A stretch of DNA of 64,000 nucleotides from a virus (lineage: Duplodnaviria; Caudoviricetes): IMG/VR virus record IMGVR_UViG_3300035182_001315, one strand, 5' to 3'. The notes under the pieces are model-generated. The model saw only the letters and a program-made list of their open reading frames with translations. It did not search any database and was not told the DNA's origin. The number at the start of each line of letters is the position of its first letter. Position 1 is the first letter of the stretch. The position numbers were made by a program, and so were the translations under genes. Shown here one piece after another: positions 10,985-16,029 of this stretch.

Positions 10985-11395
10985 TTATAAAAGGATTATT
11001 AACGCTATGGATACCACCAACATAGATATCTTCAATATTGCTGAAGCTTTTTCGGCCTTATTAGGAAACCACTTCTGTAACAACTTGTCGGTTTTAGCCG
11101 TAGTTCCCACAAAAAAGAAGGGTTTGTTCAATCCTACCTTGTGAACGATACCGGCGAAGATTGCCCAGAATGCAGAAAGGGAAAGAGGAATGAATTTAGC
11201 CCCAAACGCAAAAAAGGCAGTAAAAGCCAAGTACAGGAATAACCCAGCACCTACTTCATGCCATTCAGCGGAGACTTTATCATTCTCAGGAGTTCCGTCA
11301 GGAATCCTTGCGTCTTTGATTAATAAGGCGTTGTATAAGCCTAAAAGGACTACTCCAATGAGTACCCAGATTGTTCCAAGAATTGTTATAAGCAT
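10985..11395 (-). CDS. Integral membrane protein (136 aa, 3-4 TM segments)
   Basis: ATG at 11395 directly after the upstream TAA. Hydrophobic segments MLITILGTIWVLIGVVLLGLY, GAGLFLYLAFTAFFAFG, LSLSAFWAIFAGIV, ILKISMLVVSIALIILL. Confidence 0.7.
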   Translation of the reverse strand: MLITILGTIWVLIGVVLLGLYNALLIKDARIPDGTPENDKVSAEWHEVGAGLFLYLAFTAFFAFGAKFIPLSLSAFWAIFAGIVHKVGLNKPFFFVGTTAKTDKLLQKWFPNKAEKASAILKISMLVVSIALIILL

Positions 11396-11396
11396 A

Positions 11397-11570
11397 TTAC
11401 TCTTTAGTAATAAGTATCTTGGAATATGACACAGTTCCATCTTTATCAACCTGTTTTATGCGATAATAGACAGTTTTTGGCTGGGTTGGAGTAACAACAT
11501 TCTCTTTTTGGCATTTGAAGCCGATGAATGCGATAAAAAATATTGACAGGAAAATAATAAGCCTCTTCAT
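11397..11570 (-). CDS. 57-aa lipoprotein carrying the terminal strands of a T9SS-cargo-type beta-sandwich
   Basis: MKRLIIFLSIFFIAFIGFK-C20-QKEN is a signal peptide II with a Bacteroidota-like K/E patch. C-terminus YYRIKQVDKDGTVSYSKI. ATG at 11570, 4 nt after the upstream stop. Confidence 0.65.
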   Translation of the reverse strand: MKRLIIFLSIFFIAFIGFKCQKENVVTPTQPKTVYYRIKQVDKDGTVSYSKILITKE

Positions 11571-11574
11571 AGTT

Positions 11575-12576
11575 TTAACGGTTAAATGTAAAGTCGTAAG
11601 TAAGGGTCGCAGATGAGTTACCATTTGGAGCCTTGGAGTCGATTTTACCGACAGTGTTGAAACTAATTCCATCTTCACTTCTCTGAACCTCGAAGTAAGC
11701 ATTGTTGGATTCAGATACCGTTGTCCAATGAACAAGGGTAGAGTTTTGTATAGTTCTTAAATAGAAATCACCGAAAGTAATCGGAAGAGGAATACCCTTC
11801 TGATATTGCAACATCCACTCCCACATAGAAAGTCCAGTGGTCGGGCTGTGCCAGTTGATATCTTCATATGTTGTCCAGCAGCAGTGGCCACCCGGATAAA
11901 TCCAAAGCTCAGATGAGTTAGGAAAAAACTGGTTGAACCTTGAGTTAATCCATTTTGTCTGAGTAAGGAAGTCACCATCTTGGTCACCGTCCATACACCA
12001 TGTATGAATCTTTTCAGTAGCCCAAGCCTGTAGCTGAGCATCAGAAGGATTCACGTTTGTAGCGATTGACATTGGTACAGCAGCGGCAAAGTAATGAGTT
12101 AATTCCTGAGAATATGTAAGGGCATCAACAGTTTCCGCACCACCGGCACTAAGGCCATTGATGTAGATTCTGGAAATGTCAACACGGTAGTTGGCTATAA
12201 CCCACTTGATAGTTGCGAGAACTTCTTCAGGTGGCGGAGCCCAATCGTAATGCTGAGTAGCAATTACTATGAAAGAGAATTTCTTCTTGCTGATAGGGTC
12301 CGTGATATTATCAGGACGCATACCGTTTGCAATAAGATTTGGTATTCCTTGATTTAAAAGGATATTAACCGGCCCGAAGGCACCTGCTTCACCTAATCCG
12401 TGTAAAAAAATTACTACAGGATATTTCGTGGTGGAAAAAGGATAATCTGCGGGAAGGTATAAATACCCTTGTAAATTACCAGTGGGATATGGGACAGAAA
12501 CTTGTTGTTGTGGGCCTTGAGCAAAAGAGTAAAACGTTGTTGTAAGGATTGCTAACAATAAGAAAATCTTTCTCAT
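11575..12576 (-). CDS. Secreted alpha/beta-hydrolase (esterase / PHB-depolymerase-like / predicted peptidase family) with truncated C-terminal beta-sandwich
   Basis: Sec signal MRKIFLLLAILTTTFYSFA-Q; YPVVIFLHGLGE oxyanion motif; GLSAGG nucleophile; GDQD Asp; GGHCCW His. C-terminus LPITFGDF...HWTTVSESNNAYFEVQRSEDG...YDFT. Confidence 0.85.
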   Translation of the reverse strand: MRKIFLLLAILTTTFYSFAQGPQQQVSVPYPTGNLQGYLYLPADYPFSTTKYPVVIFLHGLGEAGAFGPVNILLNQGIPNLIANGMRPDNITDPISKKKFSFIVIATQHYDWAPPPEEVLATIKWVIANYRVDISRIYINGLSAGGAETVDALTYSQELTHYFAAAVPMSIATNVNPSDAQLQAWATEKIHTWCMDGDQDGDFLTQTKWINSRFNQFFPNSSELWIYPGGHCCWTTYEDINWHSPTTGLSMWEWMLQYQKGIPLPITFGDFYLRTIQNSTLVHWTTVSESNNAYFEVQRSEDGISFNTVGKIDSKAPNGNSSATLTYDFTFNR

Positions 12577-12596: not shown

Positions 12597-13121
12597 TTAT
12601 CTTATCAGTGGTTTGTCAAATAGTTTTTCTAAATCTTTTCCACTGTTATCTTTAACGTACTTAACTGTTGTATCAGATACGTTAGTTATTTTTATGAAGT
12701 CAGCTGGCGCTACGTTTACAGAATTATTAGTTAGTATCGCAGATGAAGCTCCATACTGAGTGAACAAATATACTGCCAGAAGGATATAACATAGCCATTG
12801 GCCACCATTTCCCTGAACAAATATATCAGTTTTGTCCGCCGCACCCAAAATGATAAGGATAACTACACCGCCAACAGCGATATAAGAGATAACCTTTAGA
12901 ATCTTGTGAGCTGGTAATTCCTTAGCTTTTTCCAAAGCCAATTTAGGGGAAATGTCAACACGGTATTCAGCCGGTGCTGATTCGAAGTTGGCTCTCTTTT
13001 GTTCAGAGAAATATGTAACTGGGAACTTGTCGTCTTTCTTAACGATAACTTCAGCTACAAAGATTAATGAGGCAATAAGTGCCAATAATCCGATGATTGC
13101 ATTCTTAATTGGTGTTTTCAT
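12597..13121 (-). CDS. Membrane protein (3 predicted TM segments)
   Basis: 174 aa; hydrophobic stretches at about residues 8-27, 76-94 and 108-122. Confidence 0.65.
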   Translation of the reverse strand: MKTPIKNAIIGLLALIASLIFVAEVIVKKDDKFPVTYFSEQKRANFESAPAEYRVDISPKLALEKAKELPAHKILKVISYIAVGGVVILIILGAADKTDIFVQGNGGQWLCYILLAVYLFTQYGASSAILTNNSVNVAPADFIKITNVSDTTVKYVKDNSGKDLEKLFDKPLIR

Positions 13122-15184: not shown

Positions 15185-15955
15185 TTATTCTTTAAATTTC
15201 CAAATAAATCCACCAGCAGATTTTGCCTTCCCGTTACATACTGAACCAACATTACCAAAATTAAATCCATCATCTACTACATTATGTAAACATTCATATT
15301 CCTTTATAAATTCACCTTCTTTTGAAAATTGTAGAACTTTTTTTCTATTCTTAGACTTCTTACCCCACATTGGATTTTTTTCACCCACCTGACGTTCACC
15401 TTTTCTATAGGCTGGGTTATTCTCTCCCTCATTTGCCTTTCTAATCTTATCTTTAACCTCATCTGAATGGTTCCTTCCAAGTTGACCCTTTCTCATATTC
15501 TCTTTGGCCAACTTAGCTTTCTCCTCTCCGAGAAGTTCTTCAAGAGATATACCTAACTTTTTCTTAGAGGCGGTGTCCTTTTGTTCTTGGGTCCATTTTC
15601 TACCGAAGTTTGGATTGTCCTCACCCAACATTTGTTTACCATGCTTAATCTTAACATATTCAGACCATTTTTTATTTAAAGGGTCTTTAAGATTATAGTT
15701 TAAATCAGAATTTATTCCACCATGTTCATTAATCCAAAATATCTCTCTATTATCCAAATCCTCAGTCTCTTCAATAATTTCAAACTTGAAATTATTCTTA
15801 CCATATTTCAAAAATGCCCTTTGTAAATGCTCGTTATGATGAGTATTATTTTCAAGCCTATAAAAATGTTCTCTTTCTCTGTAATTAAGCCTATCTGTCT
15901 GACCAATATAAGTCTTACCATTTATCAGATTCGTTATTTTATAAATCCCCTTCAT
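15185..15955 (-). mobile_element. Free-standing GIY-YIG homing endonuclease with NUMOD3-like repeats and NUMOD1-like C-terminus
   Basis: GIYKITNLINGKTYIGQT; HSDEVKDKIRKANEGENNP, GEKNPMWGK; C-terminal VLQFSKEGEFIKEY...CNGKAKSAGGFIWKF. Start 15955 preferred over 15982. Confidence 0.9.
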
Positions 15956-16029
15956 ATAAAAAAAGATGGTTGTTTTATCCATCTTTTAATAAATATGTAG
16001 AAATATTAAAAAGTAATAAGTTCCACGGT

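Follow-up and report, generated by a model that had tools for sequence, protein, structure and literature searches.

The 64,000-nucleotide stretch of phage DNA analysed here (IMG/VR virus record IMGVR_UViG_3300035182_001315; Duplodnaviria, Caudoviricetes; below, the window means this whole stretch) carries two adjacent genes, one for a secreted esterase (P0001) and one for a lipoprotein-type protein of 57 amino acids (P0002), between which a single beta-sandwich domain is divided. In this pair a C-terminal anchoring module known from Bacteroidota has probably been divided over two phage genes, and the small protein would tether the esterase as an accessory of the lysis cassette. Several components are already familiar: the alpha/beta-hydrolase, the sandwich of the fibronectin type III (FnIII) kind, the lipoprotein leader and the pilus-like strand complementation. 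New are the division of the domain between an enzyme and a tiny lipoprotein, and a one-chain counterpart that carries an internal lipoprotein signal in a loop of the domain and serves as a C-terminal tag.

One sandwich domain encoded by two genes

P0001 consists of a Sec-type leader, an alpha/beta-hydrolase domain and, from residue ~263 onwards, five beta-strands. In the AlphaFold2 (AF2) model (pLDDT 93) the strands of the last domain comprise residues 266-276, 279-289, 294-299, 307-313 and 325-332, that is, five of the seven strands of an FnIII/immunoglobulin (Ig)-like sandwich, with strands F and G missing. The original prediction, made from the nucleotide sequence, held that the sandwich is truncated and that the missing strands lie on the next open reading frame (ORF), 57 codons long, 4 nt further on and in another frame; the ORFs and their translations agree with this. 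P0002 reads MKRLIIFLSIFFIAFIGFK (leader), C20, QKENVVTPTQPK (linker) and TVYYRIKQVDKDGTVSYSKILITKE (C-terminal stretch). Its N-terminus, MKR followed by a 16-residue hydrophobic run and Cys20, amounts to a basic n-region, an h-region and a Cys at position +1. In 16 aligned sequences, comprising phage small proteins and bacterial C-termini, the Cys, the Lys at +3 and the motif R-x-KQVDKDG were invariant.

The residues G141-L-S143-A-G145, D200 and H231 of the esterase were invariant across seven phage esterases and the bacterial P0006; among 62 homologues H231 was invariant and S143 and D200 were nearly so. The nearest solved relatives of P0001 are 4q82, 3doh and the CE1 feruloyl/acetyl esterases: a Foldseek search placed 4q82 first (E 2e-12), followed by 3doh, 1jt2/1jjf and 5vol, and a profile search against PDB sequences matched 4q82 at E 2.6e-25. 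Profile matches pointed to the PHB-depolymerase family. With Pfam, Peptidase_S9 reached 23.9 bits (cut-off 22.6) and the remaining matches stayed below their own cut-offs; the NCBIfam scores were 34 for TIGR01840 (cut-off 108) and 48 for NF050058 (cut-off 150). Gln at +1 of the predicted cleavage site of P0001 fits the Bacteroidetes Q-rule as outlined in PMC5837995.

The split is conserved

The same gene pair was found in nine loci with DNA, namely the window and L001, L002, L003, L089, L091, L092, L093 and L094 (L090, a second contig of the L089 type, was not counted as a separate locus), and one additional pair is known solely from gene tables. In the eight loci found in addition to the window the break point was fixed: the esterases of the pair are 26-71% identical, and none of them ends more than a residue or two away from the end of strand E. 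The three closest homologues of P0001, P0003 (71% identity), P0004 (57%) and P0005 (58%), stop at the same place, and behind each of them lies an ORF of 53-58 amino acids with a leader, a Cys and KTVYYR[ILV]KQVDKDG...KE. The L089 esterase is 58% identical to P0001, those of L091-L094 only 26-32%. Down to this lowest overall identity of 26% the sandwich residues W284, E289, S300, D302, G303 and Y327 were invariant, and many positions in the incomplete sandwich did not vary among the four closest esterases.

Synonymous sites were saturated in the four closest loci (proportion of synonymous differences, pS, about 0.75 or more), whereas the proportion of nonsynonymous differences (pN) was 0.07-0.25 in the hairpin and 0.15-0.29 in the catalytic domain. 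The hairpin was the most conserved segment of the small protein. Additional small stand-alone copies were found by a profile search of 1.84 billion representative proteins, and every stand-alone copy with a readable locus follows an esterase of the P0001 family that ends just after strand E. Several small stand-alone matches without a basic N-terminus (e.g. P0133, P0149 and P0242) were not counted as split pairs; since the basic N-terminus is absent, these are probably gene-calling fragments of the unsplit form described below.

Gene spacing within the pair ranges from a 13-nt overlap to 6 nt. Measured from the first base of the stop codon to the ATG, the offset is +7 in the window, +4 in L001, +5 in L002 and -1 nt in L003; because the frame offset varies between loci, a conserved frameshift site is unlikely. 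The junction of the window (11570-11577), for which the original prediction had envisaged a check in reads, is crossed by contigs of four runs with 0 differences and no indel; three of the four runs may be the source samples. The pair has shifted between genome contexts as one unit.

Several other searches were negative. Phage GenBank records, searched by DNA and by esterase protein, gave no match, and neither did scans of IMG/VR in which the esterase and the alignment of the small proteins served as queries. A word-based protein search with the 57-residue P0002 matched only the query itself. A metagenome scan with the esterase alignment yielded only bacterial-type homologues and one truncated locus (L008). 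PHROGs gave no match for the esterase, for P0002 or for the two membrane proteins that flank the pair.

In one metagenome protein fragment of 104 amino acids (P0175), the sandwich of an L002-type esterase breaks off at strand C' (...VERSEDGLNFTEAARI) and is joined without a gap to the last part of the leader of the small protein (AFYTC SKSV...), followed by the hairpin. Either a deletion has fused the two genes again in this variant, or the fragment is an assembly artefact.

A predicted complex of the two proteins

Esterase residues 258-333 and P0002 residues 21-57 were folded together. The complex obtained an ipSAE of 0.80, compared with 0.20 for the best of three controls. In a calibration, 58 of 80 solved complexes and 2 of 110 mismatched pairs attained the ipSAE mark; these counts are only approximate for the present case, which was modelled with custom 4-row alignments. 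Three model runs agreed in at least 91% of the contacts, with a partner pLDDT of at least 74. P0002 residues 34-41 paired with esterase residues 293-301 (F beside C) and residues 48-57 lay against 271-273 (G beside A), which is the normal topology of an FnIII/Ig-like sandwich. The model supports binding of the hairpin to the esterase sandwich. Tethering by beta-strand complementation, as originally proposed, thus gains support from three sides: the pair is conserved, its modelled complex scored above the controls, and a bacterial module exists in which the same parts form one chain.

The unsplit form is a C-terminal tag of bacterial surface proteins

A genome scan revealed the one-chain module in Niabella spp., a Sphingobacteriales metagenome-assembled genome (MAG), Pedobacter arcticus and others. 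From N- to C-terminus this tag consists of a sandwich part ending in ...GNS....Y.F, a hydrophobic transmembrane (TM) helix, a K/R-rich loop and a second hydrophobic segment with a lipobox, followed by Cys-x-Lys, a linker, [LV][FY]VRIKQVDKDG..YSK, about 13 residues and the stop, which falls 12-14 residues past the hairpin motif. Twelve bacterial C-termini could be aligned across both phage proteins with fixed spacing. The form with the TM insert was present in 111 of the 150 best representative clusters. Over 132 clusters the residue at -1 of the Cys was S in 76, A in 35, G in 20 and T in 1, so that 131 of the 132 have the S, A or G of a canonical lipobox; the residue at +3 was K in 129 and that at +5 was D or E in 87, and the hairpin motif began 14-17 residues after the Cys. 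In an AF2 model of the unsplit module of Niabella the sandwich folds with the hairpin docked (pLDDT about 90-95), while the two helices are looped out with low confidence.

Tagged ORFs number 40-48 in one Niabella genome and 12 in each of two other genomes; of the 151 genomes of the family that were sampled, only about 5 had the full tag. The passengers are adhesin-like or otherwise of surface type (DUF6923, CshA/Big_9/cadherin-like, SdrD_B, RCC1 and a glycine-rich domain). The tag had no match in Pfam or NCBIfam, a Foldseek search with its model gave only weak, generic FnIII/Ig-like matches, and a literature search for an internal lipobox, for a domain split with a lipoprotein and for a lipobox-type sorting tag found nothing relevant.

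Alignments and blastp showed that the phage pair shares with the tag the GNS....Y.F and C-x-K motifs, the spacing, R-x-KQVDKDG and the position of the stop. It does not form a single chain, however: the esterases end before the first helix and the small ORF starts independently. Judged by sequence, the phage pair is thus a split derivative of the unsplit tag and not a plain member.

Several observations concern the distribution of the tag itself. Niabella ginsengisoli (L011, 3217-9249) has three tandem paralogues with the unsplit tag, the first of which looks interrupted (a 474-residue ORF followed by a 160-residue ORF with the tag). In Niabella sp. 22666 (G001), at least a dozen of the 40-48 tagged ORFs are crowded into about 45 kb of contig C2 (about 352-396 kb), which may be a genomic island of tagged surface proteins. 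Two tagged contigs (L035 and L055) are binned in MAGs labelled Acinetobacter pittii and Competibacteraceae; since the proteins on them share 75% and 42% identity with the Niabella module, they are probably mis-binned Bacteroidota contigs.

Relation to the continuous domain of type IX-secreted proteins

The original prediction invoked, from family knowledge, a continuous form of the domain directly ahead of the C-terminal domain (CTD) of the type IX secretion system (T9SS); such a form does exist. Esterase homologues of ~436 amino acids from Flavisolibacter and other Chitinophagaceae consist of the esterase, an unbroken sandwich and a PF18962 T9SS CTD. P0105 and P0108 have ...W.T..E.NNAYF.V.RS..G..F....GNS....YS..D......YYR..QVD.DG... 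directly ahead of the CTD, and in a scan of species-representative genomes most of the 79 loci with the hairpin motif were continuous and CTD-bearing.

It had further been proposed that the CTD was lost and that a lipoprotein signal was inserted within the domain. A CTD is absent from the pair: with E values up to 1 allowed, neither P0001 nor P0002 matched the sorting domain of T9SS cargo (PF18962 / TIGR04183). The idea of an insertion in the phage has to be revised, since the signal belongs to the bacterial C-terminal module. In blastp comparisons the phage sandwich part scored 60-79 bits against the unsplit module, but reached only 30-43 bits with the corresponding domain of the nearest T9SS esterases, and it was 45-58% identical to the sandwich part of the bacterial tag. 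Because it is closer to the module, the phage pair appears to descend from the unsplit form, by loss of the first helix and the basic loop and introduction of a stop and a start, rather than by a fresh insertion into a T9SS protein.

Proposed mechanism

In the proposed mechanism both the esterase and the small protein would be exported by Sec. The small protein would be kept in a membrane through its lipidated Cys, or, in the case of the window copy, maybe through an uncleaved leader instead. Its hairpin would enter the open sandwich of the esterase, with strand F beside C and strand G beside A, and the enzyme would thus be held at a short tether from a membrane without participation of T9SS. 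At the end of infection the tethered esterase might then attack the host envelope as an accessory of the lysis cassette; this last step is a weaker inference than the others.

In the bacterial precursor the first helix would stop transfer and the basic loop would stay in the cytoplasm, while the second hydrophobic segment would serve as an internal lipoprotein signal. Once the Cys is lipidated and signal peptidase II has cut ahead of it, a hairpin of 40 residues with its lipid would remain bound in the sandwich of the passenger, which would give the same two parts. The fact that the phage encodes both products directly suggests that a covalent link between the parts is apparently not needed.

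Tentatively, the bacterial tag can be taken one step further, to a sorting route of Bacteroidota that has not been described before. Signal peptidase II would cut an internal lipoprotein signal located in a loop of an FnIII-like domain, and the lipidated hairpin would stay bound as a non-covalent C-terminal lipid anchor, so that exported proteins may take the lipoprotein route to the outer membrane or the surface independently of T9SS. In some genomes this would concern dozens of surface proteins, and phages would have taken it over in two-gene form to position an esterase that degrades the envelope in lysis. Such a route is possible, but we hold it with clearly less confidence than the two-part anchor of the phage.

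Genomic context and role of the pair

The window derives from a large environmental Bacteroidota phage with genes for a tail sheath, a tail tube and a GIY-YIG endonuclease. P0001 also occurs on contigs of up to 228 kb, and its sources are sediment and microbial-mat metagenomes. In L001 the pair, esterase first, comes after genes for a 121-residue TM protein, a holin (phrog_2359, E 1.6e-7) and a 268-residue protein with an N-terminal TM helix, in this order, and before that for a PF11860 muramidase. In L092 the pair is followed by a 61-residue gene and then a PF00959 lysozyme, and in L093 by a VanY/M15 peptidase. Since endolysins of three unrelated types occupy the same slot, which marks a lysis cassette, an envelope-directed role in lysis is favoured by this analysis of gene order. 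Of the envelope-remodelling roles suggested in the original prediction, superinfection exclusion and lysis aid, the latter thus gains circumstantial support.

A number of points weigh against tethering of an esterase for lysis. In the window, L002 and L089 the pair sits between two membrane proteins just before the tail sheath gene, with no endolysin beside it, and tblastn with the three endolysin types and the L001 holin detected no homologue of either kind in the window; only three of the nine loci have the pair beside an endolysin. Enzymes exported by Sec before the holin fires would have to stay harmless until lysis. Among characterised enzymes, those nearest to the catalytic domain are esterases of carbohydrates or polyesters and not lipases. 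The complex score may reflect only likeness to an ordinary whole sandwich fold known to the predictor, because both chains are halves of such a fold.

The membrane anchor of the window copy raises a similar difficulty. The classical lipobox has G, A or S at -1 (PROSITE PS51257), and S, A or G occupies this position in seven of the nine phage copies with DNA. The residue is Lys in the window copy (G-F-K before the Cys) and Thr in L002 (Y-T before the Cys), which breaks the lipobox rule. The leader and the invariant Cys agree with the lipoprotein signal at Cys20 that was originally predicted; the -1 position, which is atypical, does not. Because of the Lys, lipidation of the window copy is less certain than that of its relatives. 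By its sequence this copy may be neither lipidated nor cleaved, and it could act instead as a signal-anchored tether of the inner membrane via the uncleaved leader.

The residues behind the Cys add a last objection. A tested signal for export of Bacteroidota lipoproteins to the surface is C-X-K-(D/E)2-X (PMC5080379); the window has C-Q-K-E-N, L001 C-V-K-E-E, which matches this signal exactly, L003 C-V-K-N-D and L002 C-S-K-S-V. As a sequence feature, the partial signal C-x-K-x-(D/E) suits surface display at least as well as a periplasmic role in lysis.

A serious though less likely alternative is that the same two-part anchor serves surface display: the lipoprotein, by way of its export signal, would bring the esterase to the cell surface, where the enzyme would strip ester groups from a polysaccharide receptor or the capsule and thereby block superinfection and keep progeny off debris. 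In keeping with it, Lys at +3 is invariant and an acidic residue at +4/+5 is common, as in the tested signal (PMC5080379), with the exact match in L001; the passengers of the unsplit bacterial tag are adhesin-like (CshA, Big_9, cadherin-like, SdrD_B and DUF6923), the nearest relatives of the esterase are T9SS-secreted and the structural ones are carbohydrate esterases, and in the window the pair adjoins a fibre-like gene. Most copies, however, have a single acidic residue where the tested minimal signal needs two, crossing of the outer membrane by a folded, non-covalently bound 33-kDa partner together with the lipoprotein is hard to explain, and in three loci the pair lies inside lysis cassettes.

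It is improbable that the small protein is an outer-membrane spanin subunit (o-spanin) or an independent lipoprotein, with the strand likeness a relic of descent and the end of the esterase a non-functional stub. Its length (53-64 amino acids), its lipoprotein leader and, in L001 and L093, the proximity of an endolysin and of a coiled-coil protein with an N-terminal TM helix are in keeping with o-spanins as far as PMC6139136 describes them. The truncated sandwich is strongly conserved, however, at W284, E289, S300, D302, G303 and Y327, and an open-core sandwich of five strands is unlikely to be kept unless it is completed by something. The hairpin is moreover the best-conserved part of the small protein, all stand-alone copies with a readable locus follow a P0001-type esterase, and the match to the inner-membrane spanin subunit (i-spanin) is weak (E 0.007), and in the window the pair has no such gene as a neighbour.

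Faulty assembly, a frameshift pseudogene of recent origin or programmed frameshifting that joins the ORFs in vivo is hardly tenable as the source of the split: the ORFs do lie 4 nt apart in different frames, as a frameshift would leave them, but contigs of four runs cross the junction without an indel, both ORFs are intact under purifying selection in the nine loci with DNA, and the offset differs (+7, +4, +5 and -1 nt), each small ORF having its own start and leader. The tethered esterase, with a candidate role as lysis accessory, remains our preferred interpretation.

A different enzymatic role, that of a peptidoglycan de-O-acetylase assisting muramidases, was also considered; it is weakened by L093, where the pair accompanies an M15 peptidase endolysin.

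The features of the pair and its neighbours in the window are listed in Table 1. The 136-residue neighbour is kept after the pair in L002 and L089 at 66-68% identity and the 174-residue neighbour before the pair in L002 at 57% identity. The latter had no family match in Pfam or PHROGs; in the ESM Atlas the former fell in large viral membrane-protein clusters without a name, and a look-up of the latter likewise returned only such clusters. The two multi-TM flanking proteins travel with the pair, both in L002 and the 136-residue one in L089, and might be holin-like.

Table 1. Position of the esterase-lipoprotein gene pair and its neighbours in the window
Feature	Coordinates	Strand	Remarks
Esterase gene, protein P0001	11575..12576	(-)	ORF of 333 aa plus stop
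Esterase stop codon TAA	11577-11575	(-)	ORF ends in ...GNSSATLTYDFTFNR before the stop
P0001 Sec signal peptide, aa 1-19	12520..12576	(-)	predicted cleavage between SFA and QGPQ, from sequence; AQGPQ conserved among homologues
P0001 catalytic alpha/beta-hydrolase domain, aa 20-262	11791..12519	(-)	G-L-S143-A-G, D200 and H231, from residue conservation
P0001 incomplete FnIII/Ig-like sandwich, aa 263-333	11578..11790	(-)	strands A, B, C, C' and E only; AF2 model and alignment to continuous domains
4-nt spacer (AACT)	11571..11574	(-)	from esterase stop to ATG of small ORF
Small ORF, protein P0002, 57 aa	11397..11570	(-)	ATG at 11570; frame differs from that of the esterase
P0002 hydrophobic leader, aa 1-19	11514..11570	(-)	MKR and h-region
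P0002 Cys20	11511..11513	(-)	presumed lipidation site, after G-F-K; invariant Cys
P0002 linker, aa 21-32	11475..11510	(-)	begins Q-K-E-N; variable apart from Lys22
P0002 F-G beta-hairpin, aa 33-57	11400..11474	(-)	TVYYRIKQVDKDGTVSYSKILITKE; completes the esterase sandwich in the complex model
P0002 stop codon	11397..11399	(-)	1 nt ahead of the ATG of the next gene
Neighbour, 136-aa multi-TM protein	10985..11395	(-)	tightly coupled downstream; conserved after the pair in L002 and L089
Neighbour, 174-aa membrane protein	12597..13121	(-)	directly upstream; conserved upstream of the pair in L002

Further genes near the pair were recorded. L001 (1393-2199) and L093 (119-928) encode, upstream of the pair, homologous proteins of 268-269 amino acids, in which an N-terminal TM helix is followed by a coiled-coil stretch and a C-terminus rich in beta structure. 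The L001 protein ends in ...NYRIF, which resembles the signal of outer-membrane proteins, and this copy alone had a weak match to an Rz-like spanin profile (phrog_1152, E 0.007). They are candidates for an unusual i-spanin or for a protein that spans the envelope in one piece. A conserved soluble protein of 57-72 amino acids (...L..LD.LI....F..A.P...F......) is encoded near the pair and the endolysin in L092 (4165-4350), L093 (1582-1755) and L001 (6700-6918, minus strand). In the window a free-standing homing endonuclease gene of the GIY-YIG/HNH type (phrog_314, E 5e-34) lies between virion genes at 15185-15982 on the minus strand.

Significance

If the proposed arrangement is true, an enzyme and a 4-kDa lipopeptide can share one folded domain between them and so form a detachable membrane anchor; no anchor based on a domain divided in this way was found in Pfam, NCBIfam or the literature searched. 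The roughly 40-48 tagged ORFs of one Niabella genome open a question of sorting beside T9SS and the surface-lipoprotein route. The pair would also be a candidate enzymatic lysis accessory in phages of Bacteroidota, whose outer-membrane step is poorly known. Finally, a natural hairpin tag of 25 residues and its matching receiver domain offer a possible tethering tool.

Comparison with known systems

The phage esterases share with the T9SS esterases of Chitinophagaceae a catalytic domain that is 41-47% identical, the AQGPQ leader, the triad and a sandwich that follows the enzyme. They differ in having no CTD and in a sandwich of another sequence subtype that stops after strand E, its last two strands being encoded by a separate gene.

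Completion of an incomplete Ig-like fold by strands of another polypeptide is also the principle of donor-strand complementation in chaperone-usher and type V pili. In Bacteroidota the pilins of type V pili start out as precursors of the lipoprotein kind, as described in PMC4789730, and in this respect, too, there is a likeness, a lipoprotein leader being part of the pathway in both cases. Unlike in pili, a two-strand hairpin of a dedicated 4-kDa partner completes an appendage of an enzyme, no sequence relation was found, and the arrangement suggests anchoring and not polymerisation.

The LysB of mycobacteriophages, a mycolyl-arabinogalactan esterase encoded in the lysis cassette, acts on the outer layer after the endolysin (PMC5707550). 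Like LysB, P0001 is a phage serine esterase of the alpha/beta-hydrolase class, and its gene can occupy a position in a lysis cassette. In contrast to LysB, the host is a Gram-negative member of Bacteroidota, the esterase is exported by Sec and paired with a lipoprotein, and only three of nine loci place it beside an endolysin. No cutinase-type Pfam family matched the phage esterase up to E 1, and the likeness concerns the mode of working and not membership in the LysB family.

Two-component spanins such as lambda Rz/Rz1, as presented in PMC6139136, likewise include a small lipoprotein-type gene in or near the lysis genes, and in L001 and L093 the lipoprotein gene lies downstream of that of an N-terminal-TM coiled-coil protein, as in spanins. 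The predicted C-terminal partner of the small protein is, however, the sandwich domain of an enzyme and not an i-spanin; the esterase gene stands between the i-spanin-like gene and the lipoprotein gene, and the profile match is weak.

C-terminal sorting tags served by dedicated or general enzymes include the T9SS CTD, PEP-CTERM with exosortase, GlyGly-CTERM with rhombosortase and LPXTG with sortase. The unsplit bacterial form resembles them in being attached to many unrelated surface-type passengers, in its TM helix and basic cluster, in its multiple copies and in its patchy occurrence across genomes. Unlike these tags, it is built into a loop of a folded domain, it contains a complete internal signal of the lipoprotein type, and the anchor expected to result from it is a lipid held non-covalently.

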